Source: Eledone cirrhosa
Taxonomy: Eukaryota
Direction: 5' to 3'
NCBI GenBank assembly: GCA_964016885.1
Contig: OZ024742.1
Span: 176,638,001-176,702,000, forward strand
DNA: 64,000 nt
Part shown: piece by piece, positions 26,495-62,793 of the stretch
Position numbering within the stretch: position 1 is the first letter of the stretch
How the letters are laid out: each line of letters begins with the position of its first letter
Program-made: the position numbers and the translations under genes
Notes under the pieces: model-generated
What the model saw: the letters and a program-made list of their open reading frames with translations, nothing else
Told to the model about the DNA's origin: nothing
The model's database searches: none

Positions 26495-29400
26495 ATGTCT
26501 AATGATGAAATCTCATACCGGATCGGCCGTCACCCGGGTAAAAAAGGGCCGCGTCCCTCAGAGAGGAACCAGACTGGGGTCGAAAAATCAGCTAATGGTT
26601 CAAACCTTCCCATCACTTCGGAGCTGGAGACCTCCCATAACCGGAATACTCCTACTGTTGGCCCTCCATGCTCACCACCAAGAAATCCAAAGAAAAAGAG
26701 AGAAAAATGGTCAAGGGAAGATAATAAAGAAGTCCTTGAGGCTTTCTACACTGCCATGTACTACCCATCAAATACATCGAATACAGAGCAAACATATATC
26801 AACTGGAAAAAGAAACATCCCGAAAACAGAGGCTATATTGACAGTAACAAACTAGCCAATATACGAAGAAATATTGTAAGAAAAAAGTTACTAACTGATA
26901 TAGAAATTGATCAGATCAAGCTAGTAGCACAAAGTCAGCGAAGGGAAAATGAAGCATGTGTCAGTGAAAACGAGGTAAACTGTAACACTTCGAATCCCAG
27001 AGTTGGGGCGGAATCACTGGCAATAGAACAAATTAAAGAAAGGAGCGAAAAAGTGGAGGGAGTGCATGCTCAGGATGAAACTCCAAATGAAAATAATGAG
27101 ATCGTAAATGATAAAGAAATGAATGAAAATGAACTTGCCAACTTGAAGGATGAAATTATGATCGAATGGATGAAAATGAAAGAATCTGACATGGGGGAAC
27201 GAGACACCCTCCCTAAGATCCAGAACTCCAAACAGAACCAAAAGATAATACACAATACTAACATAATTCTCAAAAACATTATCATCACAAACAAACTAAG
27301 CATTACTGACTTAAATCATCTCTATTATGCATCGGCTAAAGTCACCACTCACTTATGTGGAGTGAAGATGAAAAAACAAAGGAATTCCCACAAGAAATCT
27401 ACTTGGCAAGATAACATCAATCGCCAAATAAACCTTCTCCGATCTGACATAGAAATTTTAACAAACTATAAAGTAGGTGAACATGTTAAACAAACTAAAC
27501 TTAGAAAATTGAAAAAAAAGTACAGTATAAGATCAACATGTGACATAGACATGCTGATAGAAACAATCAAGCAAAAAGTGTCGGCCAAAGCTGCTCGTAT
27601 AAGGCGCTTTGAAAAACGATCTAGATTCTATAAGGACAATAATATGTTCAAAAACAACCAAAGAAACTTCTACAGAAAAATTGGTAAGTCAACAATAACT
27701 GCTAAATCAATACCACCCAAGGAGGAAGTGCAAGAATTCTGGGAAAAGATCTGGGCCGAAGAAAAAGTTCATAACATACATGCCCCATGGATAGACAGAC
27801 AAATGAAAGAAACAGCTCACCTTGAAGAACAAACATGGGAAAATATAACAGTTGAACAGCTGCGCTTGGCTCTAAGAAAAACCAGCAAATGGAAATCCCC
27901 AGGAAAAGACAAAATACAAAACTTTTGGATAAATGCCTTCACAGAGTCTCATGAGCTGTTAGCCCAACTTTACAATGAAATAGTTAAGGAGCCAGAAAAG
28001 ATACCATCATGGCTAGTTAACGGCATTACATTCCTGCTACCGAAGAATGATGAGACAAACAATCCCAAAAATTACAGACCGATAACCTGCTTGACCACAA
28101 TGTATAAAATTTTAACATCAGTCCTAACTGAATACACATATGACCACCTGATAACAAATGACCTATTTCCCATTGAGCAGAAAGGGTGTAAACGAGGCTC
28201 ATATGGCTGTAAGGATCAGCTTCTGGTTAACAAAATGATACTGGAAGATTGTCATAATAGACACAAAAATCTATCGATTGCTTGGATAGATTATAAAAAA
28301 GCATTTGATAGTTTGCCACACAGTTGGATTGAAAAATGTTTAGAGATTTTCAAAATATCCCCCGTTATCAGGAGGTTTTTGTCATTCAGTATGAGGACAT
28401 GGAGAACGACACTCCTTTTGAATAGTGAAACAAAATCACTGGAAGCTGGAGAAGTTAACATTAATTGTGGAATTTTTCAGGGTGACTCTTTATCACCGCT
28501 TTTATTCTGCATCGCACTTATACCATTAAGTAAAATGCTCAATGAAACAAAACATGGATATAGAGTCTATGACAAAACCATTAATCACCTGTTCTACATG
28601 GATGACCTGAAACTATTTGCAAAAAATGATGAACAATTGCAAGGGCTATTATCCACTGTGAAGCAGTTCAGTGATGACATTAAAATGGAGTTTGGACTGG
28701 ATAAATGCGCCAAAGCAACGTTCACCAGAGGAAAGCTGCTGAAGAGTTCAGACATTAATCTTGATCGGGGGAACGTGATAAGAGAGCTTGATCAAGAACA
28801 AACTTACAAATATCTAGGTGTTTGTGAAGGAGACGGAATCAAGCACTCGACAATGAGGGAAAGGATAAGGAAGGAATGTTACCGCAGAGTCAGAGCAATC
28901 TTAAGAACGGAATTGAATGCAAGGAATAGGATCGATGCCATAAACACGCTTGCCATACCAGTAGTAACCTACAGTTACAATGTCATCAACTGGTCAAGCA
29001 CAGAGATCCGTAGGCTCGATACAAAAATCCGAAAATTCTTAACCATGCACAGAATGCATCACCCTAAGGCAGACATAGATAGAATATATCTCCCTAGGAA
29101 AGAAGGAGGACGTGGGTTAATCCAGTTAGACATTGCGTTGAAAACTGCAACAATTGGATTATCCACATATCTAAGGGAATCACATGATTGGATGATCAAA
29201 CTCGTTTTGAAACACGAAAGCACCAAAAGATCATATTCCATTACAAAAGATGCACAAAGATACAGTAATGGACTACAAATTTCAGAAGCCCCATTTACTG
29301 CTGAAATGGAAAACACAAAAAAAGCAAAGCAGGTAAAAGTAACTGCAAAGAAAGAACTGCTACAGAAACTGGCTAAGAAATGGCAAGAAAAGCCTCTGTA

Positions 29401-29821
29401 TGGAAAATACCCAGAGCGAGCTAACAATCCTGATGTTGACAAAACTTTAACCCATCAGTGGTTGGCATCCTCTGGACTGAAATCGGAGACTGAAGGACTG
29501 ATTATATCCGCACAAGATCAGTGTCTGCCAACAAAAAATTACCAAGCCAACATAATAAAAAATGGGTGCAGCCCATTATGCCGTGTATGCAAAAAACAAC
29601 CAGAGACCATTGACCATATAATTTCAATGTGCAGTCCTATAGCTCCAACCGAATACCTAAACAGGCATGACAGAGCTGCACAATACATACATTGGATAAT
29701 GTGCAAGCCTTTGACCTGCCCCATCAAAAGAATTGGTGGGAGCATCAACCACCTCCCATACTTGAAAAAGATCACATCTCAATCTTGTGGAACTTTAGCA
29801 TCCAAACAGACCGAAAAATAG
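26495..29821 (+). CDS. R4/Dong-type polyprotein: N-terminal region, reverse transcriptase, CCHC knuckle; frameshifted near 29708
   Basis: 1108-aa ORF with [53 protein letters not shown]. Confidence 0.93.
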   Translation: MSNDEISYRIGRHPGKKGPRPSERNQTGVEKSANGSNLPITSELETSHNRNTPTVGPPCSPPRNPKKKREKWSREDNKEVLEAFYTAMYYPSNTSNTEQTYINWKKKHPENRGYIDSNKLANIRRNIVRKKLLTDIEIDQIKLVAQSQRRENEACVSENEVNCNTSNPRVGAESLAIEQIKERSEKVEGVHAQDETPNENNEIVNDKEMNENELANLKDEIMIEWMKMKESDMGERDTLPKIQNSKQNQKIIHNTNIILKNIIITNKLSITDLNHLYYASAKVTTHLCGVKMKKQRNSHKKSTWQDNINRQINLLRSDIEILTNYKVGEHVKQTKLRKLKKKYSIRSTCDIDMLIETIKQKVSAKAARIRRFEKRSRFYKDNNMFKNNQRNFYRKIGKSTITAKSIPPKEEVQEFWEKIWAEEKVHNIHAPWIDRQMKETAHLEEQTWENITVEQLRLALRKTSKWKSPGKDKIQNFWINAFTESHELLAQLYNEIVKEPEKIPSWLVNGITFLLPKNDETNNPKNYRPITCLTTMYKILTSVLTEYTYDHLITNDLFPIEQKGCKRGSYGCKDQLLVNKMILEDCHNRHKNLSIAWIDYKKAFDSLPHSWIEKCLEIFKISPVIRRFLSFSMRTWRTTLLLNSETKSLEAGEVNINCGIFQGDSLSPLLFCIALIPLSKMLNETKHGYRVYDKTINHLFYMDDLKLFAKNDEQLQGLLSTVKQFSDDIKMEFGLDKCAKATFTRGKLLKSSDINLDRGNVIRELDQEQTYKYLGVCEGDGIKHSTMRERIRKECYRRVRAILRTELNARNRIDAINTLAIPVVTYSYNVINWSSTEIRRLDTKIRKFLTMHRMHHPKADIDRIYLPRKEGGRGLIQLDIALKTATIGLSTYLRESHDWMIKLVLKHESTKRSYSITKDAQRYSNGLQISEAPFTAEMENTKKAKQVKVTAKKELLQKLAKKWQEKPLYGKYPERANNPDVDKTLTHQWLASSGLKSETEGLIISAQDQCLPTKNYQANIIKNGCSPLCRVCKKQPETIDHIISMCSPIAPTEYLNRHDRAAQYIHWIMCKPLTCPIKRIGGSINHLPYLKKITSQSCGTLASKQTEK

Positions 29822-30302: not shown

Positions 30303-33300
30303 GATTTCTTTTATTAGCCACCAGGGCCGACATGTAGGGGACAATACAAAGACAGGGACAGTGGGGGGTTTACAATAAGGTGGAGTAAAATTGCACAACT
30401 GCACGACTAATTTAACAATGAAAATATAAAAATATAAAATAAACTATGCATAAATATAATAAAATAAATTCCCCGATAGGGGGTGTACGCCCCTGGGGTG
30501 CTTCAATCCTGAACCACCCTCCGCTTCTAGGGCACCCAGGGAGAGCACCCCTCTCCTCAAGTTAGCTAGCCTATAGGCGCATGCTCAGAGTAGGCCCATT
30601 CACACGAGCCATTGTCGCCACGTTCACCCATCTTTTAGCAAATGTACTGGAGGGCAGCACTTCTCTCTCCACCCTCACCTTCCTTTCCAGGTGAAACTTG
30701 AAGAAATTGATGAGGGATTGGCCGAAGAGAAAAGTGTCTGTCTTTAGTCCTTTCAACGTGGTCCACCATATAATCTCTTTCGCAACTGCCACCAGACAGA
30801 GGAAAATTTCCTGCTCTTCCTGACTTAAGGAAGGCGGTGGATCGATCTTCACTATGGACTCGGCCGATAGTCGGATTCGTTCCACACGCGAAGAGTAGCT
30901 GTTCGACATAACTCCACAAGTCAGTAATGCACGGATATTGGACAAGTGCGTGCAGACCGGTTTCGTCGTTCTGTGCGCACGTTGCGCAGGTCCGTCTGAC
31001 AGCACTTCCGTGCCTGTAGAGTTTATCCCGAACCGGCAGTGCCCCCCCCCCCCGGTAGCACTGCCAAGCGAGGGATTTCTGGAAATTGTCCGTCGTCCCC
31101 GGCTCAAAAGTCCTCCGGTACAGACTGGTCAGTTCGACTTCGTCGAGGCCCAAAGCTTCTCCGAGTGCGTCATCGCACTTGCCCACCACTAATCCTCTAT
31201 AAAACTCGAGAGTGGAAGTTCCACTGATCGCATTGCCCGCTTGGTAGAGGGCAGTGAGTGCCTGGCAACATTCCAGGTGCCAGTCACCCAGTCTCGCTCT
31301 CTTCTTGACGCAGGACTGCAGCTCAGTCAGAGAAATGAGCTGCGGATAGGCCCGTCTGATAAACGGCGACCACACCTGTTCACCGTTGAGGCAGAATATC
31401 TGGAGATGTCGCAGCCTCAACGCATGTCTGCGCATCATGAGATTCGTCATGCCCAGCGCTCCGCGTAGAGGGTGCTGACAGCAGATGGACCGCCTCACCA
31501 ACGGATCTTGTCCCATCCACAAGAATTTGAAGAGGAGCCGTTCCAGTTTGACGAGGCGCGGCGGGGGCAAGGCACGACGGTCAGGCGGTAGTAGATGACG
31601 GACGCGATGTACGCATTCGCCGCCTCCGCGCGACCTTTCAGTGATAGCTTCCTCCCAGCCCATTTTGGGGTGAGACTGGCTACTCTGCTCTTTACCTCGT
31701 CCCAATTATTTTCCACCTGGAGGTCTGGTCCGAACCAAACCCGAGCAACTTTACCGGTCCGTCCGTCCAGCGCCCCACGACGCTGTTGGACGGCATGGGC
31801 TTGCCTCTCCAGGTTCAGAGCAGCAAGCCCACCGACATTTCCGGGTTAAGTTTGGCTCCTGTCAACCTTTCATATTCCTTCAATAAGGTGCCTACCACCT
31901 CGATTTCTGAGGTGTTCGACACCATCACGGTGATGTCGTCCGCATAAGCCGACACCGCCTTTCCACGTCCCGGTTCGAGCGGGATGCCCTGCAACAGCTC
32001 CAGCTTCCGCAGTAAAGGCTCGAGAGTCAATACGAACAGAAGGGAAGAGAGAGGACACACTTGACGGACCGATCGGGATAGCCGAAATGGTTCCGATAGG
32101 TGGCCATTAACCTTGACCACCGAGCATGTGTCGCTGTGCATTGCAACGATCCAGCTTCTAAAGACAGGGCCGAGGCCAGCTGCTTTGAGGACAAACTCCA
32201 GATACCGATGGTCGACCCTATCGAATGCTTTCGATTGATCTAAATTGATCAGAGTCCCACCGAAGCCAGGTTTACACTCTACCATCTCTATGATGTATCT
32301 CATGAGGTGGAGATTGTCGTGTATGGACCTGGCTGGGATTGCGCAAGTTTGCGCCTCCCCAACCAAATCCTCGACGACAAGCGCCAATCTCTTTGCTAAC
32401 ACCCTGGCCAAAATCTGAAACTCTGTGTTGAGCAGAGTTATGGGCCTGAAGTTGTCTAATGTATCCCTCTTGTTCTCGTCTTTTCTTATCAGCGTCACCA
32501 CTCCCCTGCTCACAGAACTGGGAATACTCCCATTCTGCTGCCAGTTGCAGTAGAGTGCTTCAAGGAGTTCGGAGAACTAGTGTGGCATATTTATGTAAAG
32601 CTCGTAGGGCAGGCCATCCAAACCGGGTGACTTGCGCCTAATGCAGCCGACAAGGGCGTCCTGAATTTCGGCTGAAGTAATCGGCCTTTCGCAGCGCTCA
32701 GCGTCGACCGACGAGATGCGCGGCAAGCCGTCAAGATAGGGACTGAAATCCGCTACTCTCTCTGACTCACCACTCTCTCAGAAACAACAGAGCAAAGTGC
32801 TGGCGAAAGGCCTCAGACATCCGCTTGGAATCGCTTATCTCGTGTCCGTCTCGGTCCGCCAAAGACCGAATTGTGGTTTCATTACCACGCTGCGCCTCCG
32901 CCACGCGGGCCCATCGAACAGCTTTAGTTCCCTCGTTACTCAGAGCACGCGCCTTAGCTCTGACAATGCAACCTTCGTGTTTGGCATTGAAGAAATGGTC
33001 TAATGCCATTCTCGCCCCTAGCACGTCAGTTGCGATGCCACTACAAATAGCCTCGTCTAACTTATCTACCAGCTCCCCCTCCTGTCTATTTTTCTCTAAC
33101 GCTAGTTCTATGCTGAACTCTATCGAAGTTACTTTAATCTCTCTTTTGAGAGCCACCCACCATCTGTTGTTGATGATCCCCCCTGTCAACTTTTGTTTAA
33201 CTAAATTCTTGACTCGGTCCCTGTAAGCCTTACGTGCCGGAAATGACATGTTCAGCTTCCAGTAACCCGGTCCTAACCTACGCGTTTTATTTAGGTCGAC

Positions 33301-35982
33301 CGTACAGATCACAAATTTGTGATCTGAATAGGCGACCGTTTTAAAAAGTGGACAGCCCACACTATTTCTATCTATTTTCCTAATGAAGATCCTGTCTATA
33401 TACGATCTAGATGACCCCATTCGGTTGGTCCATGTCCATACTTGTACATTGGGGAAATCTAGTCGATACCTGACAGACAGTTGGAACTGGCTGAGTAGGT
33501 GCTTGAGGCTTTTGCACCCCCACTCCTATCGGCTACTCCCACACAATCCCAGCGTGCGTCCAAGATGCCATTCCAGTCCCTCGCTAACAGTATAGGGCGA
33601 TCGTACCTAGAAAGGTCTCCAGGCGCCTAAAGATGTCAGGTCGTCTGACGCCTGTAGGGGCGTAGACGGCCAGCAGTCTAAAGGCACCACCTTCGCTACT
33701 TCTCACATCCAAGACGACCAACTTACTGTCCGGGTCCCGGAAGATCGAACTTACCTCGAGATCCAGTCCTTTCCTAAACAGCACTTCCACCCCTCATACC
33801 CGGCCTGCTAACAGATTCGAAGATCTGATAGTTGTCGAAAATGGGGGCTAGTGCGCGCGTGTCGGAAATTATGGTCTCGCTTACGGCAATCACATCCATT
33901 TCCAGCGACCTGAGGTCGTTGAGCAGGCGACCCTGCTTCCAGGGTGACCCCAGGTCGCGAACATTTAAACTTCCTACTCTTAATATGGCCATATGTGTAA
34001 GCTAAGAGAGAGATAGGGAAGGTTTACTTACCTCCCGGGTCTTGTGAAGGTCCTGTTGGTTCGACCTCCATGGTTGGTGGGGTTTCTTTTGAGAACCCCT
34101 TTAAAAGTCTTGATGTGGGTTTCACATTCGGGGTTCCCACGTCTTGAGGAAAGCTCTCTCGAATTTCTTTGAAAGAATTGAGTGACATTCGGACCAGAAG
34201 CAAATCTTCTGGCACGCAAAATGTGCTCATTTCAAAAATCTCCCCCTCTGTTTGAATGTCCTCGCTTCGCGCTAAGAGGGCCATCAGTTTATCGTTGACC
34301 CTTCTGACAAGCACGAAGTTTTTAACATTTTGTTGGTGTGGTTTTATTTGTTTTCGTTTTGGTGAAGGTGTTGGCGATGGTTTTGGTGGCGTTGTTTCGG
34401 GTATGTCTATGTTTGTTGTAGGTGTGGTGTCTGCAATTTCAGGTATTTGTGTGTTTATTTGTACTTGTGTTTGTTTAGGTTGTTTGCGTTTCGGGGATTG
34501 TGGAGGTGGTGTCGATGTTGCTGATGGTGCTGATGTTATTGGGGAAGTGTTTGCGTTAGTGGTGTCTGTATTTTTTGTTGTGTGTGTTTTTGTGTTTTGT
34601 TGGGGCTTTTTTTTGTGAGTTTTCTGTTTTTTTGCACTTTTGGGTTTTCCTTCATCTTCGCTGCTGGAAGACAAAGGGTCTGTGTCTGTGAGTGTCTCTG
34701 TGTCTGTGTGTGCGTTTATTGTTTTGTCTATGTGTATAATTGGGGGAGGGGGGGGGTAGGGGGAGTGGGAGAGCTTTCCTCGTTTTCTCCTTGGATTGGT
34801 TTTGGTGTAGGTGGTGATCCGGCTGTATTTGATGTTGGTGTCCGTGTTTTTGTTGATGTTGTTTTTGGTGGTGGTGGTGCAACTTTCCGTTCTGACACTG
34901 GCGTTGGCAACAAAGGAGGTTTGCGACCCTCTGCATTTTTGCGCTGAGGGCAGAAGGCTTGAAGATGCGTTGCTTCCCCGCAGACGAAGCAGCGTGGCCT
35001 TCTTCCGTCAATCATTAGTTGGATTGTTGTCCCGTCCTGCAGGCGGGCAAAATCCGGGATGTTATTCATATCCTCCGGTTTCATTTGGAGTAGAATCTCC
35101 AAAGACATTCCGGACCAGTCTTCTCTCTCTGTCCTTTTGATGTCCAGGAGGGTGGTGTCTGTCCCCTCCTCGATTACGCATCCCAGCAGCCACCATATGT
35201 TCATTCCTGGTGGGATGCTGGGAATGCGTACCTTCACTGTCCTTTTACCCATATAGGACGGATGCATGATAATGCGTTCCGTTCTGCAGGGGGTCACCGA
35301 TTGCTTAATAGCGAGGGCCTCGGTTTTGAACAGTACCGAGATGGTACCGAACTGTTTGCCTCTTGCTTTGTACTCTATGTTACTTCCGATGTACTCCAAA
35401 GCAGCCTCTACCTCTGCTTGGCTCGCAAGTTCCACTTTTCGTGTCTGCACCGAAATACATCGAAAGAGCACCGTCCTCCTTTGCATGGCCGCTATTGCCT
35501 CGTCTGGGATGGTCAGGTTTGCCCAGGACTTCTCCCGTTTAATTAGCCTCCACGCTTTGGCCAACTGTTCGTCTTTATCGCTAATATCAATATCAATATT
35601 CAATAAGCGCTATGTTTTTGCTGCTGCTGCAGTAAATGTGGTGTTTCTGATGCTCTTATTGTTGATGTCATTCTTGCTGTTGTTATTGGTGTTGCCACCG
35701 CCATCCTTGTTTACATTGAAGCTGTCGGTGTTATTGTCGTTATTGGTCTGAGTTGTTGTTGTGGTGGTGGTGGTGGTGGTGGCGGTGGTGGTGATGTCGT
35801 TTTCAGATGATACTGCTGCTATCGCAGAAGGTTGTGATGGTAGCTTTTGAGTTTTGCCTTCACATTCAGTAGAGTGGATGACAGGCATGACTGTAGCCGT
35901 CGTAGTCGTGGTGAAATCTACAGTGGCTGTCGCTAAACGTTTGACCTGAACGTTGTTTACCGTTTCAAGGTCGAACATTTCC
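30303..35982 (-). mobile_element. Tx1-clade (L1 group) non-LTR retrotransposon, family A copy 1, lacking its 5' UTR
   Basis: ORF1 plus APE-RT ORF2; AATAAA followed by (ATT)n at the 3' end. Confidence 0.92.
30571..33992 (-). pseudogene. Tx1 ORF2: AP endonuclease + RT + C-terminal Cys motif, multiple frameshifts
   Basis: GSLNVRDL, VSET, VYAP, SYIDRIF, YSDHK, GYWKLN, FRPITLLN, LDQSKAFDRVDH, AYADDIT. Confidence 0.92.
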
Positions 35983-35984
35983 AT
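34024..35984 (-). pseudogene. Tx1 ORF1 (gag-like, CCHC knuckle, T/P-rich linkers); one stop and one frameshift
   Basis: GRRPRCFVCGEATHLQAFCP (CX2CX4HX4C). Confidence 0.85.
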
Positions 35985-35987
35985 AAT

Positions 35988-38900
35988 TTTCGATTGATCT
36001 AAATTGATCAGAGTCCCACCGAGGCCAGGTTTACGCCCTACCCTCTCTATAATGTATCGTATTAGGTGGAGGTTGTCGTGTATGGACCTGGTTGGGATTG
36101 CGCAAGTTTGCGCCTCCACAACCAAATGCCCGACGACAAGCGCCAACCTCTTCGCTAACACCCTGGCCAAAATCTGAAACTCTGTGTTGAGCTGAGTTAT
36201 GGGCCTGAAATTGTCTAATGTGTCCCTCTTGTTATCGTCTTTCCTTATCAGCGTCACTACGCCCCGGCTCACAGAACTGGGAATACTCCCGTGTTGCTGC
36301 CAGTTGCAGTAGATGGCTTCAAGGAGATTGGAGAACAAGTCTGGCATATTTACGTAAAGCTCGTAGGGCAGACCATCCAAACCGGGTGACTTGCGCCTCA
36401 TGTAACCGACAAGGGTATCCTGAATCTCGGCTGAAGTAATCGGCCTATCGCAGCGCCCAGCGTCAGCCGTCGAGAGTTGCGGCAAGCCATCGAGGTAGTG
36501 ACTGAAGTCCGCCACCATCTCTGACCCGCCACTTCCCCCGAACAACCGAGCAAAATGTTTGAGAAAGGCCTCACACATCCTCTTGGAATCGCTCCGCTCG
36601 TGCCCATCTCGGTCCGTCAAAGACCGAATCGTGGTTTTATTACCACGTTGCGCCTCTGCCACGCGGGCCCATCGAACAGCTTTGGTTCCCTCGTCTCTCA
36701 GAGCACGCGCCTTAGCTCTGACAATGCAACCTTCGTGTTTCTCATTGAGGAAATGGTCTAATGCCATTCTCGCCGCTAGCACGTCAGTTGCAATGCACTA
36801 CCAACAGCCTCGTCTAACTTATCTACCAACTCCCCCTCATTTCTATTTTTCTCTAACGATAATTCTTTGCTAAACTCTATCGACATTACTCTAATCTCTC
36901 TTTTGAGAGCCCCCCCCCCCCCTATCGTTGACCCCCCCCCCCCCCTGTCAACTTTTTCTTAACTAAATTGTTGACCCGGTCCCTGTAAGCCTTACATGCC
37001 AGAAATGACATGTTTGGCTTCCGGTAGCCAGGTTCTAACCTACGCGTCTTATCTAGGTCGACTATACAGATCACAAACTTGTGATCTGAATAGGCGACCG
37101 TTTCAAAACCTTTTTCAGCTTACACTATTTCTGTCTATTTTCCTAATGAATATCCTGTCTATATACGATCTAGATGACCCTATGCGGTTAGCCCAGGTCC
37201 ACTCTGGAGTATTAGGGAAATCTAGTCGGTACCTGTCAGACAGTTGGGACTGGCTGATCTGCTCTCGCTGACAGCAATTACATCCATTTCTATAGACTTG
37301 AGGTCGTTGAGCAGGTGACCCTGCTTCCAGGACGATCCCAGGCCTCGAACATTTAAGCATCCTACTCTTAATACGGCCATGTTGGCAGGTTAAAAAGAGA
37401 GAGAGGAAGGTTTACTTACCTTTCGGGCTCTTGTGAAGGTCGGGCTGTTCGACCTCCATAGTTGGTTGGTTTCTTTTGGGAACCCCTTTAAAAGCCTTGA
37501 AGTGGGTTTTACGTTCGGGGTTCCCACGTCCCAAGGAAAGCTGTATCGTATTTCTTTGAATATATCGATCGACATTCGCACCAGAACCAAATCTTCCAGC
37601 ACGCGAAATGTGCTCCATTTAAAAATGTCCCCCTCTTTTTGTATATTTTCACTTCGTGCTACGAGGGCCATCAGTTCCTTGTTGGCCCTCCTGACGAGCA
37701 CGAAGTTTTGTATGTTTTGTTGGTGTGATTTTGTTTGTTTGCGTGGCAGTGGTGGTGATGGTTTTGGTGGTGTTGTTTCGGTTGTGTCTGTGTTTGTTGT
37801 GAGTGCGGTGTCTGTAGTTTCAGATGTTTGTGTGTATATTTGTTCTTGCGTCTGTTTAGGTTGTTTGCGTTTGGGGGATTCTGGTGATGGTGATGGTGGT
37901 GTTGATGTTATTGGAGAGATGTTTGCTTGGGTGGTGTCTGCGTTTTTTTATTATGGGTGATTTTGCTCTTTGTTTAGTTTTTTTTTTCTTTTTGTGTTTC
38001 CTTTTTTTGTATTCTGGGGGATTTGGGTTTTCCCTCATCTTCACTACTAGTAGATGAGGGGTATGTGTCTGGAAGTGTGTTTGTAGGTATGTTTATGGTT
38101 TTACTGGTGTGTGTATTTTTTTTTTGGGGGGGGGGGGAATTAGACAGCTTTCCTCGTTTCCCACTTGGGTGGTCAATGTTGGTGGTGGTCTTTCTATTGG
38201 TGGTTTTGCCGGTGCTGGTGTTGGTTGTGGTCCTCGCCCCGGCGTCGGCAGCAGTGGAGCCTTTCGACCCCTTGCCTCTTTCAGCAGTTGAGGGCAGGAG
38301 GCTCGCAAATGGGTTTTTTCCCCACAAACAAAACACTGCGGCCTTTTGCCTTCGGTCATAATGTGAATGACCGTCCCATTCTGATGGCGGATGTGGTCCA
38401 GGATTGTCTTCACATTCTCGGGCCTGATCTGGAGAAGGATCTCCAGGTCAACGCCGGACCAGTCCTCTCTGGCCGTTCTGGTCACTTCTATAGGGACGGT
38501 ATCCGTCCCCTCAACAATCACACATCCCAGAAGCCACCACATGTCAAGTCTTGGTGGGATTCTGGGAATGCGGAGACGGGCCGTTCTTTTTCCCATGTGG
38601 GAGGTGTATATTATGACCTTGTTGGTTTTGCAAGGAGTCATAGCGTGTTTCATAGCGAGGGCTTCTGACTTGAACAACACCGAAATGGTGCCGTACTGTC
38701 TGCCCCTCTCTATGTATTGGGTGTCTTCTCTGATGTACCTCAGCGTGACTTCAACATCTTATTGGGGGATTAAAGCTGCCCTTTTGGTTTGTGCTGAGAT
38801 GCATCTATAATGCACCGTTCTGCGCTCCACTGCCTCGATAACTTATACCGGGACAGTTAAGTTGGTCCAGGTTTGCTCTTGCTTGATGAGCTTCCATGCC

Positions 38901-48539: not shown

Positions 48540-48612
<73 letters not shown>

Positions 48613-48613
<1 letters not shown>

Positions 48614-49717
48614 TACCGCGTGAAGCGCATGAAGGGGAGAAATCCCATGTAACTTCACCTTCCGTAGGGAAACTACCCAACAATTAGCCTCTCGCCCGTG
48701 GGTAGCGGGCCCGGACTCGGGGAATTCTTAGGCGCCCTCCGTGCCGGCGATTGGAGCCTTGAGGCAGGGACACACCTCGGCCCCGCTTCACGCGGTAAGA
48801 CCTCACCGCAGACCGGACCATCCGTGTCCTCGTAGCCCATACGCGTATCAGCGACACGGATGTCTGCCCGGCCGCCGACCTGTTTGAGCCGTGAGAGCCC
48901 GACCGGGTTGCCCCACTCGACTCTTCGGTCTCCAACGGAGTGGTCTGGCGCAACTCCGAGCTGCCTCCACCAAACGGGCTGACACCGTACCAATGGATGA
49001 AAACAACCCGGCGCGTTGGGACAGCCGGGTCTGGCCTGGTACTGGGGCGGGCTCTCGCCGCCACCAGAGCCGCCACGCAACCCGGCTGCTTTGGCCCGCG
49101 CCAGCCCAATAAGCGGAGTTTCGGGCGGGAGCGGATCTGATATGGCCGGGCCAATAGTTGGGCGACTCCCCGACCTTAGAGAGCGCCACTTGATACAAAA
49201 ACAAAGAAACAACGCCGCTCGTACCAGCAACGACGTGTTATGAATAATTTCGGCTCGCTTGGTCACCCGGGAGGTCCTTGCGACTGTTCGGACCGCCAGG
49301 GCTAAAGCTCTCTCGCCACGTCAAGGCGGAGCCAGGAGGGAGGTCGGCGGGCTATCGCCTACCACGGCGATATGTACCAATCTCCAGCCCTCCGCCTACT
49401 AATCAAAATGCATAGGCGAATCACGCTAACCCGTGCGGGGCCGGTCGAAGGCACACGATGCCCGTCGGCCTCCCGGCCAACGTTGCGTCCTCGAACTAAT
49501 CTAAACGCATCACGGAGCCGGCGATTGCTTTAAGAGTCTAAACCGTCTGCGTCCGTAGCCTAACCTAATTATCTAGTCTAACGCACCGTTGCTCGCCCTG
49601 CGACGGGTGGTCGGGAGTTCCTAGGAGCATCCCTTCCCAAGCGTTTTTAAACTACGTTAACTACCGGGACGCCCTCGTCATCGCCCGTGACGAGGCATTT
49701 GGCTACCTTAAGAGAGT
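48613..49717 (-). mobile_element. Unclassified 1.1-kb GC-rich insert headed by the 28S rRNA R2 target sequence; possible R2-derived or rDNA-insertion retrocopy
   Basis: Sharp GC/CpG-rich island flanked by (TAA)n and ataataat; no similarity to other elements in the window. Confidence 0.55.
49688..49717 (-). rRNA. 30-nt fragment of 28S rRNA (helix 69-71, R2/I-PpoI site); not an rRNA gene
   Basis: Minus strand ACTCTCTTAAGGTAGCCAAATGCCTCGTCA is the conserved eukaryotic 28S sequence as I recall it. Confidence 0.9.
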
Positions 49718-49725
49718 ATAATAAT

Positions 49726-52196
49726 CAGAACCGCATGATCGACAACAACCAGAAGATGCTGTTTGGACAGCTTGAGGGGAAAGAAAGAGGCAACGACTTG
49801 ATCCCTGGGGCGGAGCAAACTAAAACATTCTGGAGAGGAATATGGGAGCAGGATGTTAGACACAATGCCCAGGCAGGGTGGATTGAGACAGTACAGAGGG
49901 AGATCGGTGAGCAGGCACAGCAACAGACTGATTTGAGTATCACAGTTGAAACTCTTAAGGGGCAGGCCAAAAAACTAACCAACTGGAAATCGCCAGGCCC
50001 AGATGGTGTGCAGGGGTATTGGATTAAACATTTAACATCCCCCCACCCGAAGCTGACGGCCATGTTCAATGACTGCTTGGTGTCGGGTGAGGTGCCAGAG
50101 TGGTTGACAAAAGGTACCACAGTTCTGATAATGAAAGACCGAATCAAGGGTAATGATGTTACCAACTATAGACCTATCACATGTCTGTCCGTAATGTGGA
50201 AACTGTTGACGAGCATTGTGTCTGAGGAAATCTACCATCACCTCCACACAAACAACTTGTTACCGGACGAACAGAAAGGATGCCGAAAGAAGTCACGTGG
50301 TACAAAGGACCAGTTACTTATTGATAAGATGGTAATGGGGAATTGCAGGAGGAGACACACTGATCTTGCCATGGGATGGATAGACTACAGAAAGGCATTT
50401 GACATGGTGCCTCATTCCTGGATCACCAAAAGCCTGGAGATCTTCAGGGTGGCAGATAACATCAGACAGTTGCTAGGCAGGAGTATGGGGTCCTGGGAGA
50501 CAGAGTTGACATCAACTGGAGTATCCTTGGGAAGCGTGAAGATCAAGAGAGGTATCTTCCAGGGAGATAGCCTGTCCCCTCTGTTGTTTGTCCTTGCCCT
50601 GATGCCCTTGACCATTATGCTGCGAAAAGTGAGAGCAGGATACAAGTTGGGAAGGGGAGAGCTTACCATCAATCACCTCCTCTTCATGGACGATCTTAAG
50701 CTCTTCGGGAAAAGTGAGAAGGAGTTGGATGTGCTTGTTGACACTGTCCGTATTTTCAGCAGTGATATATGTATGCAGTTTGGTATTGGTAAATGTGGAG
50801 TCATTGTGATGAAGAGGGGTAGGTTGAGCAGAAGTAACGGGATCCAGATACCAACAGGTGAGATGATAAAGGAAATTGACTCTGAGGAAGGATACAAGTA
50901 TTTGGGCGTTCTGGAGGCTGATGGCATAAAGAACAAAAAAATGAAGGAATTGTTAAGAACTGAATACATTCGGAGAGTAAGGAGCGTATTGAAGTCACAT
51001 CTGAACAGCAGAAATGCCATAAGCGCAGTAAATTCCCGAGCTGTGTCTATTATTAGGTACAGTGCGGGAATTCTGAGATGGAATGTTGCTGAACAGAAAG
51101 AAATGGATAGGAAGACTAGGAAGCTATTGACTATCTACAACATGTTCCACAAGAGGAGTGATGTCGATAGACTCTACCTAAGGAGATCTGAGGGTGGAAG
51201 AGGTCTTATCAGCATAGAGGACTGTGTTCAGATGGAGAAAAACAACCTATACAAATACGTGACCTATAGTAAGGAGCCAATGCTCAGAGCTGTACTGAAG
51301 GAGGGGACAGTAGGCCAGGGGATGTCCAGGGAGGAAATAACATCAAGGAGGAAGAGCAGCCTTAAGGGAAAACCCCTTCATAGTACCTTCTTTGAGAAAA
51401 CTGAATTTAGAGATCCACAGACATGGAACTGGTTGAGAAGAGGAGACCTCAAAAAGGCTACAGAAGGAATGCTAATGGCTGCGCAGGAGCAGGCCCTCAA
51501 AACGAAGTGGTTGAAGCACCATATCTACAAGGAGGAGGCCAGCCCACTGTGCAGGATCTGTGGAGAGAGAGAGGAGACTGTGGCTCACATTGTGTCCGAG
51601 TGTAAACACCTAGCCCAGACCCACTATAAGGGCTGGAGACACGATGTGATGGGCAGGGTGATCCACTGGCACCTGTGCAAAGTAAACAATCTACCACATT
51701 CTGAGAAATGGTATGAGCATAGGCCAGAGGCGGTGATGGAGAACAATCAGGTGAAGGTGCTGTGGGATTTTAGGATACAGACGGACAAAAAACTGGAACA
51801 CAATAGACCTGACCTGGTGGTTGTGGACAAAGAAAAAAGATCGTGCCTGATTGTGGATGTGGCCTGCCCGTTCGACACGAGAGTGCAAGAGAAGGAGGGG
51901 GAGAAAATTAACCGATACCAGGACCTAAAGTGGGAGGTTAAAAGGATTTGGAACTGCCATGAAGTCAAAGTGATCCCGATTGTCATAGGCGCACTGGGGA
52001 CTATCTCCAAAAGTTTCCAGGGATGGTTAAATAAAATCGGCCCCTTGACGCTTTTTTAACGCTTCAAAAGGCATGCTTGCTTGGAACAGCAAGAACCCTC
52101 CGATACGTCCTGAATATCTGAGGCTGCAGGTAGTGGCTTGATATTCAATCCAACGGACTTTCCAGTTAACCAACATCAATGACTGAGATTCAAGGA
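49726..52196 (+). mobile_element. R4/Dong family A copy 2, 5'-truncated and young, with (TAA)n tail at 52197-52261
   Basis: Colinear with A1 from about 22802. Confidence 0.95.
49735..52059 (+). CDS. R4/Dong RT + CCHC + RLE open frame (N-terminus missing; frameshift in the last 20 codons)
   Basis: YRPITCL, GIFQGDSLSP, FMDDLKL, CRICGEREETVAHIVSEC, NRPDLVVVD..IVDVACP. Confidence 0.9.
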   Translation: MIDNNQKMLFGQLEGKERGNDLIPGAEQTKTFWRGIWEQDVRHNAQAGWIETVQREIGEQAQQQTDLSITVETLKGQAKKLTNWKSPGPDGVQGYWIKHLTSPHPKLTAMFNDCLVSGEVPEWLTKGTTVLIMKDRIKGNDVTNYRPITCLSVMWKLLTSIVSEEIYHHLHTNNLLPDEQKGCRKKSRGTKDQLLIDKMVMGNCRRRHTDLAMGWIDYRKAFDMVPHSWITKSLEIFRVADNIRQLLGRSMGSWETELTSTGVSLGSVKIKRGIFQGDSLSPLLFVLALMPLTIMLRKVRAGYKLGRGELTINHLLFMDDLKLFGKSEKELDVLVDTVRIFSSDICMQFGIGKCGVIVMKRGRLSRSNGIQIPTGEMIKEIDSEEGYKYLGVLEADGIKNKKMKELLRTEYIRRVRSVLKSHLNSRNAISAVNSRAVSIIRYSAGILRWNVAEQKEMDRKTRKLLTIYNMFHKRSDVDRLYLRRSEGGRGLISIEDCVQMEKNNLYKYVTYSKEPMLRAVLKEGTVGQGMSREEITSRRKSSLKGKPLHSTFFEKTEFRDPQTWNWLRRGDLKKATEGMLMAAQEQALKTKWLKHHIYKEEASPLCRICGEREETVAHIVSECKHLAQTHYKGWRHDVMGRVIHWHLCKVNNLPHSEKWYEHRPEAVMENNQVKVLWDFRIQTDKKLEHNRPDLVVVDKEKRSCLIVDVACPFDTRVQEKEGEKINRYQDLKWEVKRIWNCHEVKVIPIVIGALGTISKSFQGWLNKIGPLTLF

Positions 52197-52207
52197 ATAA
52201 CAATAAC

Positions 52208-52261
<54 letters not shown>

Positions 52262-56822: not shown

Positions 56823-56830
56823 GTAATAAC

Positions 56831-56894
<64 letters not shown>

Positions 56895-57136: not shown

Positions 57137-60100
57137 TTACAGACACATACTCAGAGAAGGCCCATTCATTCGGGCCATACTTGCTTCTCTCACCCATCTT
57201 TCAACAAAATGCTGGGAAGAGAGCACTTCCCTCTCTACCCTGATTTTCCTTTTCAAATGAAATTTGAAAAAGTTAATCAGGGCATCACCGAAGAGGTAAG
57301 TGCTCGTCTTCAGCCCTTTCAAACGTGTCCACCATACTATCTCTTTCGCCATGGCCACCAGACTGATAAAAACTGCTTGCCCTTCCAGGCTAAAGGAAGG
57401 GGGCGGGGCAATCCTCACGATGGACTCAGCTGATAGCTGGATCCGTCCTACACGTGACAGCAGGTGTTCGACATAAACCCACAAGTCAGCAATGCTCGGA
57501 CACTGGACGAGTGCGTGCAGGACGGTTTCGTCGCCCTGCGCGCATCTCGGACATGCCCGGCTGACGGCACCTCCATGCCTGTAGAGTTTATCCCGAACTG
57601 GCAAAGCTCCTCGGTAGCACTGCCAGGCCAGGGATTTCTGGAAGTTGTCCATAGGCCCCGGCCCGAAAGTCCTTCCGAAGAGATTGGCTAGTTGATTTTC
57701 GTCGACGCCTAGAGTTTCTCCAAGTACGTCGTCGCTCTTCCCCTCCACTAATCCCCTATAGAACGCCAAGGTGGAGTTTCCACCGATCACATTACCCGAT
57801 TGGTCGAGGGCTGTGAGCGCCTGAAGACATTCCAGTCTCCAAGCGCTCCCTCTCGGTCTTCGCTTGACCCAGGACTACAGCTCCGTCAAGGAGACGAGCT
57901 GGGGAAAAACGTGTTTTGCAAACGGCGACCACACCTGATCACCGTCGAGGAAGAGGTGGAGATGTCGTAGCCTGAGCGCGTGTCTGCGCATCATCAGCCA
58001 CGGCATGCCCAGCCCTCCACGTAGCGGGTGTTGACAGCAGATGGACCGCCTGACCATCGGAGCGCGTCCCTTCCACAAGAAGCGAAAGAGCAAACGCTCC
58101 AGCGCAGTCAGGCGAGGCTTAGGACAAGGTACGACGGTCAGGCGGTAGCAGATGACAGACGCGATGTACGCGTTAGCCACCTCCGCTCGACCTTTCATGG
58201 ATAGCTTCCTCTCCGCCCATTTCTGGGTGAGAGAAGCCACCCTGCTCGTCACCTCGTCCCAGTTTTTGTCCGTCTGGAGGTCCGGACGGAACCAGACCCC
58301 TAGCAATTTAACCGGTCCGTCCGTCCAGCGCCCGACGACGCTGTTGGACGGCATGGACCTGCCTCTCCAGGTGCCGAGCTGCAGGCCCACTGACTTTTCC
58401 TGGTTGATCATTGCTCCTGTCACCGCTTCGTATTCTCTTAGTGTAGTGCCGATCGCCTCGATGTGTTTGGCGTTCGACACCACTACGGTGACATCGTCGG
58501 CATATGCTGACACGGATCTTCCGCATCCTAGTTCGCGCGGGACCCCCCTCAACGTCTCCAGTTTGTGCAGTAATGGCTCGTACAATAGGGACGAAAGCGG
58601 ACATCCTTGGCGGACCGAGCGCATGATGTTGAACGGTTCCGAAAGGTGACCGTTCACTCTCACTACAGAGCAGATGTCGCTGTGCATGGCAGCGATCCAG
58701 CCTCTGAAGACGGGCCCAAAGCCAGCCGCCCTCAGGACTGCCGTTAGGTAACTATGGTCGACCCTATCGAAGGCTTTCGACTGATCTAAATTGATCAAAG
58801 ACCCACCCGTGCCAGGTTCCCTAGCTACCCTCTCTACGATGTATCGCATGAGGTGGAGGTTGTCGTGGATGGATCTGTCGGGAATGGCGCATGTCTGTGC
58901 CTCTCCCACCAGACCACCAACGACAAGCGCCAACCTCTTTGCTAGCACCTTGGCCAAAATATTGAACTCTGTTTTTAGCAGAGTTATGGGCCTAAAATTA
59001 TCTATGTTATCCCCCTTGTTTTTGATCCTTTCTCAGCAGCCCCACCGCTCCTCGGCTCACAGAGCTGGGAATTTTCCCGTTCTGTTGACAGTTGGAGGCC
59101 TCCGAACAAGTTTGGCATTTGTACGTAAAGTTCATAGGGCAGACCATCCAAACCAGGCGATTTACCCCTTGTGCAACTAGTCATTGCATCCCGTACTTCA
59201 GCGGTTGTTATCGGCTTTTCGCAACACTCCGCCTCAGTGGCCGAAAGCCGCGGCAGTCCGTTGAGGTAGACACTAAAGTCCATCCCTCGATCCGGCCCGC
59301 CACTGCCCCCGAACAGCTGAGCGAAGTGTCGCTGAAAAGCTTCACACATTTGCCCGGGATCGAGTAGCATGCGCCCGTCGTGGTCCACCAAAGACCGGAT
59401 CGTGGCTTTGTTGCCACGACGCGCCTCCGCCACTCGGGCCCATTGAACGGCTTTCGTCCCCTCATGTCTGAGACCACGCACCCTAGCTCTGACAACGCAG
59501 CCTTCGTGCTTTGCATTGAAGAATTGGTCAAGGGCCAATTTCGCCGCAAGTACGTCGGTCGCGATGCCTTTGCTAAGTGCCTCATGTAATTTTCTAACTA
59601 ATTCTCCCTCTGCTCTATTTTTCTCTATTGCTAAAGTCTTACTAAACCTAATGGACTCTATTCTAATTGCTCTTTTCAGAGCAAACCACCACTTGTTGTT
59701 GACGATGGCCCCCGTCAACGCCCGCTTAACTAGTTCGCTAATCCGGTCTCTGTAGGCCTTGCGCGCTGGTAAGGACGCGTTTAGCTTCCAGTAGCCGGGT
59801 CCTCGTCTATGAAGCCTATCTAAGTCAAGCACACAGATCACGAATTTGTGGTCCGTGTAGCTGACTATCTTGAATTGTGGACAGCCTATGCTAGACCTAT
59901 CTATTTCCCTACAAAATACTCTATCTAGATATGATCTGGATGACCCTATGCGATTTGTCCAAGTCCACATTGGTACATTCGGAAAATCCATTCGGTACCT
60001 GTCAGACAGTTCAAAACGTCTGAGCAGGTTGGTGAGACTCTTGCACCCTCCTTCCCTAACCACTAATCCCACACAATCCCAGCGTGCATCTAAGATCCCG

Positions 60101-60527
60101 TTCCAGTCGCCCACTAACACTAAAGAGCGGGACGTTCCAAGAAAGGTCTCCAGACGCCGGAAGAAATCAGGCCGCCCTGCTCCTGTCGGGGCATGAACGG
60201 CCACTAACCTGAAAGCTTGCCCGTCTCCGTTGGTCACGTCCAGCACCACCAACTTACCTTCTGGGTCCAGGAAGAAGGCCCGTATGGCAAGATCCAAACC
60301 TCTCCGAAAAACACAGCAACTCCTCCCCCCGATCCCGGACGGCTGGGAGATGCGTACACATCGTAGCCGCCGAAGATCGGTGCGAAAGCCTGTGCATCGG
60401 AGATTCTGGTCTCGCTGATGGCCACTACATCTATGTTTAGTGACCTGAGGTCGCTGAGCAGGTGGCCTTGCTTCCATGACGACCCCAAGCCACGCATATT
60501 TATGCTGCCTATTCTGAGTGAGGTCAT
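57137..60527 (-). pseudogene. Tx1 ORF2 (APE-RT-Cys), several frameshifts
   Basis: GSINMRGL, ISET, VGDWN, SYLDRVF, TDHK, VRQGCPLS, AYADDVT, CPRC..HALVQC. Confidence 0.93.
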
Positions 60528-60561
60528 GTTGAAAAGGAGTGGAAAAGATGGGAAAGACCAC

Positions 60562-62555
60562 TTACCTTACTTCTCGTAGGGGAAGGACGGTTTTTCCATC
60601 CTTTTCACTGCTTGTGGCCTCCTCAGGAAGGATGTCCTTATAAATCCTCCTGGAGAGTGCTTGTCGGAAGTCTCCGATGTCTTTGGGTAATTTTTGTTTT
60701 AGTGTCATGTACGTTTTCTGTGTGATGCGAGTGATTTGTATGTGTGGAGGTGGTGTGAATTTTGGGGTTGTTGTGTAGTCTTTTTCTGTGATGCTGGTGT
60801 TGTGTTGGATGTAGTGTAATAATTGCTTGTTGTTCAAATTTAATGCTGTGTAGTGTGTATCGTTTTGGTTGTTTTGTTTTGTTTGCGTTTGTTGTGGGTT
60901 TGTTTCTGTTTCGCATTTTGGTGACTTTTGTGGTGTAGGTGATGGTGGTGTTGGGGTTAATGATGGTGATGGTGTTGGTGTTTGGGTTGATGGGGTTGGT
61001 GATGCTGGTGTGGATACTGGCATATCTGTCCTAACTTTTTTGTTTCTTAGTTTATTTGTTTCCCTCTGTATTTTGTTTTTGGAGGGGGAAGGAAGAGAAT
61101 TTTTTCTTTTTTGGTTTCTTTTTTTTTTTCGGATATCGTTTCCCACTCCTCGTCGTCACGATCTGTCTCCAGTTGTGATAGGCCGGGGAGTGGCAAATCC
61201 TCCACAGCCGTTAGTTTTGGTTGTGGTGTGGTGGATGGTGTAGGCGCTGGTGCTAGTTCTGAAGCGTTGGGTGGTGGTGGTGTTGGTTTTGCTGGTGGTG
61301 GTAGTGGTGTTGGTTTTGCTACTGTTGCTGGGGTTGTTGCTGTTATAGTTGCTTCTGTTGTTGCTGCTACAGTTGTTGCTGCCATCTCTGCTACTGGTGG
61401 TGTTGATGGTTGTGTCACTGGGGTGGGTAGGAGAGGTGGCCTCAACCTTTTAGCCTGAGGGCAGAAAGCCCTTAGGTGGGTTCCTTCACCACAAACGACA
61501 CACCTAGGTCTTCTGCCCTCGACAATTACCGTGAGGTGGCTGCCGTCAGTGAGGTCTATTACCTCTGGGATCTCCTCAATGCTTTTTTGGTCCGCTTGGA
61601 TCAGGAGCTCCATCCCAGATCCGGACCAGTTTTCCTGCTTTTCTTTTGCTACTGCTATTATTTTCGTGTTGGCTTCGATGCCGGCGAGGACAGCCGCTAT
61701 TAGCCAGGGAATTTCGATGGCCGGTGGAACGTGGGTCACCCTGATCTTTACGAGTCTCTGGCCACAATAGCTTGGGACGAGTGTGAGGTCGTCACTTTTT
61801 AATGGGGCCATGGAGTGTTCTCTAGCCTCCTCTGGTGTTTCAAAGAACACATCCACGGTTCCACACTTTTGCCCACGTCTGATGTGGGTTTTTCTTGCCC
61901 ACACATGTCCCAAAGCTTTTTGGATTTGGGACTCAGATGCCCGTTCCACTCGGCGCGATTTTACATTTATTGTTCTATACGACACGGTGCACAGGCGCCG
62001 ATGCTCCATTTTATTAGGTGGGGGGGTGAGGCTGACCCTGTACCCATCTTTCTTTACCATTTGTTTGGCATTTTCTAAATCTTCTTGAGTTACCGTGAAC
62101 GCTTCGAATTGTTTTGCTACGATGGCGAAACTGAGGGTCGGTTTTATAATGTCATTGTTGTTGTTGTTGCTATCGTTATTTGTGTTAATCTTAATTTTTG
62201 TTTCAGTTGTGGTGGTGGTGACGTCACTCGTCTTTGGTGCGGAAGAGTCCATTTTGCTTGATTTCATTTCGACATCACGAGTTAATTTATTTTTTTCTTC
62301 TTTTGTTTCTGTTGTCGCGGTGGTGGTGGGGGTGGTGGTTCTCGCGGTGGTGGTGGTGGTGGAGGCTTTAACACCTGCAGTCATTGGTAATGGCGGGAAA
62401 TGAATGTCTGCCTGAGACAAATTTAAAATATTGCTACTGCTTATATTTTTTTTTGTGTTGGCAAACGTAGTAACATTTACAATGGTGGTGTTGGTGTGAG
62501 GTGTTATTTTGAGAGGAAGGCTTTCAGCTGCTTCGTGCAGAGGGGAATTAGCCAT
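60562..62555 (-). CDS. Tx1 ORF1 (about 660 aa if the single -1 shift at the A11 run 61119-61129 is corrected)
   Basis: GRRPRCVVCGEGTHLRAFCP knuckle; ORFs 61047-62555 and 60562-61146 overlap. Confidence 0.85.
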
Positions 62556-62793
62556 TTTCTTTCAAAGAAATTTTTGGATAATAATAAAAGTTAAAATTTT
62601 GGGCACAAGGCCCCAATCTTTTTGGGTGTCCTTTTCGGAAAACAATGTATGTGCGCTTATAAACAGTTAACAATAAAATTTTCCATAAATGACAATTTTT
62701 AACAAACGGAAATAACAAACCTTTGCGGAGCTCACGATGATACGATTTACTACGTAGGTCGCCAATAATAATAATAATAATAATAATAATAAT

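Follow-up and report, generated by a model that had tools for sequence, protein, structure and literature searches.

How did a piece of the 28S rRNA gene spanning the R2 target site come to head a GC-rich insert outside the rDNA? The locus that raises this question lies in the window, a 64,000-nt stretch of the Eledone cirrhosa genome. Here, insert positions are numbered q1-q1104 along the minus strand (q1 = window position 49717), and 28S positions are counted from the R2 nick (+1). As originally predicted, a GC-rich insert of ~1.1 kb is present at 48614-49717. Its head (q1-30) agrees at 30/30 positions with the host's own 28S gene (L023) over -12..+18 around the R2 site, and an 8-bp stem (q23-30 with q38-45) forms the hairpin described over the 28S/insert junction. 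The head segment +1..+18 is a duplication of downstream 28S. The window gave no Rfam match at the gathering score and is therefore not rDNA, so the placement outside rDNA also stands. With a probability of about 70%, we consider the insert to be a stray and nearly complete retrocopy of a SIDE-like, non-autonomous derivative of R2 that is ~1.19 kb long.

The surroundings of the insert were only partly as described. The (TAA)n setting holds on the 3' side, where a 74-bp (TAA)n tract (48540-48613) adjoins, but at the head just 8-9 A/T bases separate the insert from an inverted LINE. Similarly, the tract does adjoin the end thought to be flush on (ATT)n, but family homology ends at q1093. Because of this end point and because q1091-1105 is a perfect 15-nt inverted copy of q920-934 (48613-48627 vs 48784-48798), the final 11 bases were probably templated locally, as a patch. 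Contigs from public runs X1 and X2 (one sample, which may be the source) cover 29/30 bins, with a low contig depth over the insert (about 9-103 in two runs), and no contig or read spans either junction of the insert. Runs X5 (RAD reads, LINE only) and X4 (other organism label; one 151-nt contig) were set aside as evidence. None of the sequencing runs listed as holding the sequence was an RNA run. All features are collected in Table 1.

Table 1. Coordinates of the features (window positions unless a locus is named; q, position along the insert)
Feature	Position	Strand	Basis or detail
(TAA)n microsatellite, left flank, likely priming/target tract	48540..48613	+	TRF 24.7 copies, 100%
Terminal patch of 11 nt, matching 48786-48796 in inverted form; probably not part of the element proper	48614..48624	-	L008, L016, L024, L068 continue differently
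3' part, collinear with terminal ~560 nt of L061; ~95 nt short of family 3' end	48625..49112	-	local alignment
Middle segment, conserved in insert family, no match to R2 UTRs	49113..49250	-	sequence comparison
Predicted HDV-like ribozyme core	49251..49334	-	descriptor match, covariation in family and across lineages
Predicted P1	q2-8 with q404-410 (P1' 49314-49308)	-	7 bp
Predicted P2	q384-390 with q460-467 (49334-49328 with 49258-49251)	-	7 bp, one bulge
Predicted P3	q391-393 with q401-403 (49327-49325 with 49317-49315)	-	3 bp
Predicted L3	49324-49318	-	7 nt
Predicted P1.1'	49307-49306	-	single P1.1 pair
Predicted P4	q417-452 (49301-49266)	-	11 pairs
Predicted catalytic C in J4/2, C-Y-A-A context	49262 = C456	-	same context in 27/31 cores scanned
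Predicted 375-nt J1/2 loop, closed multi-branch domain bringing P1 and P1' together	49335..49709	-	MFE fold, alignment fold
8-bp hairpin, 28S +11..+18 with element sequence	49673..49695	-	fold and comparison
28S-derived head, -12..+18 around R2 site	49688..49717	-	30/30 to L023
Predicted P1 5' strand = 28S -11..-5; predicted cleavage just 5' of 49716	49710..49716	-	P1' pairing scan
A/T spacer, 8 nt, element head to LINE; target remnant or untemplated	49718..49725	+	sequence
5'-truncated RLE-type LINE, Dong/R4-like, opposite orientation to insert	49726..52195	+	TAA target, domain order
(AAT)n tract, (AAT)22 at LINE 3' end, common tail-to-tail with minus-strand Tx1-like LINE	52196..52261	+	TRF
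Sister SIDE loci	L030-L038, L042-L044, L046; e.g. G000 C12:25.05-25.10 Mb, C4:352.08-352.16 Mb, C25:22.1-23.0 Mb		
R2 lineage copies	L056:1264-4908; L144:3546-7373		

Predicted HDV-like ribozyme

The original prediction had recognised no HDV fold by eye, but a generic HDV descriptor predicts one in the insert, with one match on the sense strand and 0 on the antisense strand. On shuffled sequences, any match arose in 4/1000 cases and a match with P1 in the head in 0/1000, counts that are not to be read as probabilities. In silico, the match has the nested double pseudoknot of the fold (P1, P2, P3, P1.1, and P4) with C-N-A in J4/2. P1 spans a 375-nt loop and pairs 28S -11..-5, which is the sole 7-mer in -45..+20 pairing P1' at ≥6/7 for all four P1' variants tested. 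An internal alternative P1 (q376-382) was rejected: it pairs at 6/7 vs 7/7 for the head, and no copy begins there. In five family copies, which are related sequences, 96.4% of 110 cells pair and 4/22 pairs show a two-sided change; slid-register controls in the same copies pair in 29-51% of cells.

The predicted core was also detected at the 5' ends of R2-type insertions, in 27 pattern matches, 19 of them with an exact upstream-28S anchor within 200 nt. Altogether, 27/31 loci scanned yield 11 distinct cores from the insert family, two R2 lineages, and a sister SIDE family of the rDNA. P2 is paired in 76/77 cells of these cores and all seven P2 pairs change on both sides, a count biased towards structure since the cores were selected for a 6-7-bp P2, which 4/31 loci do not have. 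As far as can be judged from sequence, the insert core covaries with the predicted ribozymes of R2 elements seated in host 28S genes. Among six core-pattern matches, L174 and L179 were examined as family members and rejected as an unrelated repeat with only the ribozyme core in common. There (L174:1440-1700, minus; L179:1420-1670), this other repeat stands behind a pyrimidine tract with a near-identical P3/L3/P1' core; we presume that it is possibly the 5' end of an RTE-type LINE.

Other properties of the predicted fold are less typical. The minimum free energy structure pairs q2-7 with P1'; P1 is absent from the centroid, and z for the fold as a whole is only -1.3. Rfam scans returned no ribozyme family in the window (gathering score) nor in five loci at E≤5. 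The predicted cleavage-site pair in the -11 register is C-G in 11/11 cores, without the purine that HDV-like ribozymes usually have at this position. Registers of -12 or -13 give A-C or G-U with a P1' strand of 8-9 nt, and in this model cleavage there is possible. According to passages of PMC8233481, the first pair is usually G-U in HDV-like ribozymes, and G1A reduces CPEB3 activity.

Dispersed family and R2-type elements of the rDNA

A genome search with the insert returned 25 matches from 20/20 candidates, one being true 28S. The remainder are 19 distinct loci including the window, and searches with diverged copies add two, giving 21 dispersed loci with an overall identity of 68-99%. Identities fall into tiers of 92-99% to the window copy, of 68-85% (L005, L012, L080, L008, L016, L021, and L068), and of about 59-73% for the tail of L061, to which L087 is 88% identical. 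A head pattern search found eight head-bearing copies at seven loci, with starts in 28S at -12 or -11 (window), -11, -10, -10, -9, -6, -6, and +4. Seven begin within -12..-6, and the eighth (+4) sits behind an internal jump. Further upstream 28S precedes 0/8 of the heads. The young-subfamily head is 30/30 identical to 28S, and the heads of older subfamilies have drifted. Copies inside a 28S gene were found for 0/8 heads and 0/9 matches to the 3' part.

As to whether dispersed copies share both ends, a check suggested with the original prediction, the 5' end is common but the 3' ends are scattered over the 21 loci; 2/21 extend to the 3' terminus, and no tail is shared. L008 and L016 run ~95 nt beyond q1093 to a terminal hairpin, both stopping at the same base, and full length is therefore put near 1.19 kb. 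HDV folds have been reported as unusually stable in cells (passages of PMC11331408), and such stability may therefore have favoured 5'-anchored survivors. Many members of the family are short internal pieces between (TA)n or inverted repeats. Around the fragments at L007:1450-1760 and L016:1400-1920, flanking DNA forms long inverted repeats, with the fragment in the middle. In addition, one internal duplication (from q~197 back to q46) is common to the separate loci L003:1315-2009 and L009:1451-1693 (minus). Together with a similar back-jump in run X1, this suggests a source variant with the duplication.

The 28S survey scored 40/157 28S candidates, and the assembly has one exact uninterrupted R2 site; thus, the main arrays are probably missing, and the family's absence from rDNA proves little. 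None of 28 R2- or 28S-bearing regions compared held a parent R2 with an insert-type 5' end, and a search for 28S resuming at +19 found no copy. Two R2 lineages, alpha and beta, coexist in the genome, with proteins about 50% identical. R2 alpha has an open 1214-codon frame (best match R2Tg, E 5e-142), three zinc-finger-like motifs recognised by eye, and a 3' UTR made of tandem repeats. At its 5' junction in L056, downstream 28S is likewise duplicated. [quoted passage not shown] At L063:7403-8990, a ~70-bp 28S piece just downstream of the R2 site is amplified in >20 tandem units.

Besides these R2 elements, 13 loci among the 40/157 scored candidates carry an abundant sister family of 1.15-1.37-kb inserts with a precise +1 junction. 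Their 5' junctions are variable; they have no R2 protein match and contain blocks of the R2-beta 5' and 3' UTRs. The P4 region of their predicted HDV-like ribozyme measures 170-245 nt, and some junctions duplicate 28S from -20 to -26, further upstream than -11. Judged by the criteria of PMC3414825, this family is a conventional SIDE, and it fits the SIDE sequence criteria better than the insert family of the window. A full-length sister SIDE (L211:3148-4344; G000 C7:22.097 Mb) lies in (CA)n outside rDNA and starts inside P1. As a control, it shows retroposition of such RNAs to microsatellites in this genome.

The 3' part of the insert was compared with the same elements. The segment q606-1098 is collinear with the last ~560 nt of L061, a frameshifted R2-ORF copy joined to 28S +1, at 59-73% identity. 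Local alignment to this tail gave z=17 for q1011-1104 and z=4.6 for q681-1010 (0/200 shuffles each), and L008 scored z values of 10 and 16 (200 shuffles). No signal was obtained against the main alpha or beta R2 3' UTRs or the sister SIDE. L061 thus appears to place the 3' end of the insert family at the R2 site once. By its RT, L061 falls within beta, and the other beta copies have another 3' end. Its tail may therefore be chimeric, and it is on this one junction that the putative R2 3' UTR identity of the insert's 3' part depends.

The insert has no ORF and no Pfam match, and tblastn against 176 stop-free segments of R2 loci gave only weak off-frame matches (best E 0.001). Indels against relatives are non-triplet in 9/9 (L008), 12/12 (L005), and 2/2 (L002) cases, and in 7/8, 13/14, 10/11, and 1/1 in the remaining comparisons. 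The single ORF with zinc fingers, Myb, RT, and RLE by which an autonomous R2 is defined is absent from the insert. A C2H2 remnant had been proposed at ~48770-48820; it comprises two cysteines 12 residues apart, with no histidines and no Pfam match, and was rejected in view of frame-breaking indels in relatives and no R2 protein match.

Proposed origin and capture of the window copy

The inverted LINE beside the insert has a stop-free frame at 49651-52059 with an RT domain (PF00078, E 2e-23), and its RT is nearer to R2 than to L1 among solved structures. It is truncated at 49726 relative to longer copies, which continue upstream differently. Its name, Dong/R4, is our assumption, based also on target repeat and domain order, as is in part the name Tx1 for the neighbouring LINEs. 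Family copies touch a LINE ORF at 6/21 loci, with the window ORFs and R2 alpha as the only references. At the window (L001), L002, and L011, the copy is inverted at the LINE 5' truncation and the 3' break of the element lies on a microsatellite, and at L004, L006, and L018 it has the same sense as the LINE. L002 and L011 are direct fusions to Tx1-like LINEs without an A/T spacer. Within the window, Tx1-like LINEs end on (ATT)n in the insert's polarity. Dong-like LINEs of the plus strand and Tx1-like LINEs of the minus strand abut tail-to-tail on a common (TAA)n tract at 52196-52261 and at 56824-56893. Further LINEs at 26495-29818 (+), 30638-36797 (-), and 57878-62561 (-), among them an RT ORF of 1108 codons akin to that of the Dong-like LINE, and Tx1-like copies that contain parts of APE and RT, explain the other GC-rich stretches of the window. 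Dong is shown with upstream TAA repeats in a passage of PMC3774820.

Capture in the Tx1 polarity, the route originally proposed, is still one candidate, and the adjacent inverted 5'-truncated LINE, which had been missed, adds twin priming as another. Twin priming has been held responsible for inverted chimeras of snRNA/L1 and of 5S or tRNA/L1 in passages of PMC4476161 and PMC13174262. We see about an even chance that the window copy is the second primer of the adjacent Dong-like insertion, a reading weakened by the 8-9-nt A/T spacer, which L002 and L011 do not have. Nearly as likely is a separate, later insertion into this (TAA)n tract, because of the spacer and because the Tx1-like LINEs end on (ATT)n in the insert's polarity.

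The original prediction had offered several origins for the insert. A retrocopy of a whole non-autonomous rDNA insertion fits both the predicted ribozyme cut in upstream 28S and the ~20-bp downstream-28S duplication. Another option, a 28S-headed SINE, fits poorly, since what the copies have in common is the 5' end and not the 3' end. In its fuller form, this would be a 28S-headed SINE-like or ribozyme-headed element now only outside rDNA, transcribed by host read-through or from its own promoter. All 21 loci are indeed outside rDNA and the insert contig depth is low, but the scattered 3' ends without a shared tail, the lack of a tRNA-like head in the insert, and the same kind of stray copy produced by the sister rDNA SIDE (L211) make it unlikely. 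The remaining option, the processed 5' end of a coding R2, would make the insert the long UTR and decayed ORF start of an unassembled full-length element. The predicted R2-type ribozyme, the 28S head, and the several R2 lineages of the genome agree with this. Nevertheless, we judge it highly improbable: the 3' half resembles an R2 3' end, matching sequence that ends at 28S +1 (L061), two relatives end at that aligned terminus, nearly all indels are non-triplet, and neither Pfam nor R2 proteins gave a match.

Two further explanations bear on the head and on the junctions. An R2-related element might target a site after 28S +18, its whole 30-nt head then being a remnant of the upstream gene, with the cut 29 nt ahead of the junction. 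This would suit the 30/30 head of the young subfamily and an offset of 28-29 nt, the common R2 spacing in passages of PMC3774820. It is very unlikely, as the search for 28S resuming at +19 found no copy, the homologous 3' end in L061 joins at +1, and older-subfamily heads have drifted from 28S. The least probable reading is a DNA-level capture of rDNA-insertion fragments in break repair, or an assembly chimera, without any RNA step. The short, internal pieces flanked by (TA)n or inverted repeats, the templated 11-nt patch, and the junctions unspanned by reads would be expected from it; however, the 5' ends cluster where cleavage is predicted, with further upstream 28S in 0/8, three copies adjoin 5'-truncated LINEs in inverted orientation, and the insert is contained in public-run contigs.

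Under the preferred reading of a stray retrocopy of a non-autonomous R2 derivative, the source element would sit at the R2 site of 28S genes and be co-transcribed with rRNA. Its RNA would free itself by the predicted HDV-like ribozyme at about 28S -11, and R2 protein could mobilise it in trans. At a (TAA)n target, the freed RNA may have been primed internally near q1093 and copied by a LINE reverse transcriptase to the cleaved 5' end. In its sequence features, the insert would work like an R2 SIDE and probably belongs among them. For the genome as a whole, we propose more tentatively, and at somewhat less than even odds, that no fewer than two independent and long-lived families of R2 parasites, ORF-less and ~1.2 kb in length, inhabit its rDNA, outside flies, with a common HDV-like ribozyme cutting 5' of the cytidine at 28S -11. 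Their ribozyme-capped RNAs would have been repeatedly caught by unrelated microsatellite-targeting LINEs, and three successive subfamilies erased by rDNA turnover would survive as scattered fossils.

Comparison with known systems

ORF-less inserts occupy many assembled 28S genes in this genome. The second family is recorded outside rDNA and is therefore beyond erasure by concerted evolution. Which RNA features R2 proteins require is a question of current interest for R2-based gene insertion, and such families bear on it. In the literature searched (subscription papers and Repbase aside), there was no report of a SIDE outside Drosophila, none on octopus R2, and no relevant cephalopod ribozyme; among the papers listed, SIDEs occurred in the Drosophila paper and in two others that cite it. 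SINE28 is the name of a 28S-derived SINE. Like such a SINE, the insert family has 28S-derived 5' sequence and dispersed copies, but its head of only 30 nt serves as the predicted ribozyme P1, and its copies are anchored at the 5' end, vary at the 3' end, and have no tail in common. "28S rRNA" is cited as a SINE source in a passage of PMC13174262. Main-text passages of the R2 surveys PMC5035012, PMC13188248, and PMC13580325, supplements aside, mention molluscan R2 but neither octopus nor non-autonomous forms.

The Drosophila R2 SIDE (R2Dwi_SIDE; Eickbush & Eickbush 2012) is 529 bp long, and a survey covering 39 Drosophila species described SIDEs as rare and tenuous, according to passages of PMC3414825. 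Like the SIDEs described there, the insert has no ORF, a predicted R2-type HDV-like ribozyme at the 5' end, a 3' end that may be related to an R2 3' end, and an unrelated middle, and autonomous R2 coexists with it. Unlike them, its family measures ~1.19 kb, is known here only from copies outside rDNA, and lives in a host that is not an insect and, by its SINEs and microsatellite load, probably an octopod; the predicted cut lies within upstream 28S and not at the junction, and the insert carries an 18-nt downstream-28S duplication with no poly(A) tail seen.

With the snRNA/L1 and the 5S or tRNA/L1 chimeras in passages of PMC4476161 and PMC13174262, the insert shares a 3'-truncated antisense RNA copy whose 5' end lies at the junction with a 5'-truncated LINE. 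Its cargo differs from that of the snRNA/L1 chimeras in being a 1.1-kb rDNA-parasite RNA, and its carriers are Dong/R4-like and Tx1-like microsatellite-targeting LINEs rather than L1. In addition, target duplications are unreadable in the microsatellites at insert loci.

Published R2 ribozymes take a P1 strand from 28S, with a J1/2 of 23 to >700 nt (Eickbush, Burke & Eickbush 2013, PMC3774820), and the cut sites in the main text of that paper are 0, -9 to -36, -13, -25, -27, -28, and -29. The predicted site at -11, the C-G first pair, and the non-coding element set the insert apart from the ribozymes of that main text. The earwig R2 in the same source has a 22-bp downstream-28S duplication at its 5' end. 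It is this R2 among the published ones that the insert notably resembles, with a predicted P1 5' strand taken from 28S, a long J1/2, and a duplication of downstream 28S.
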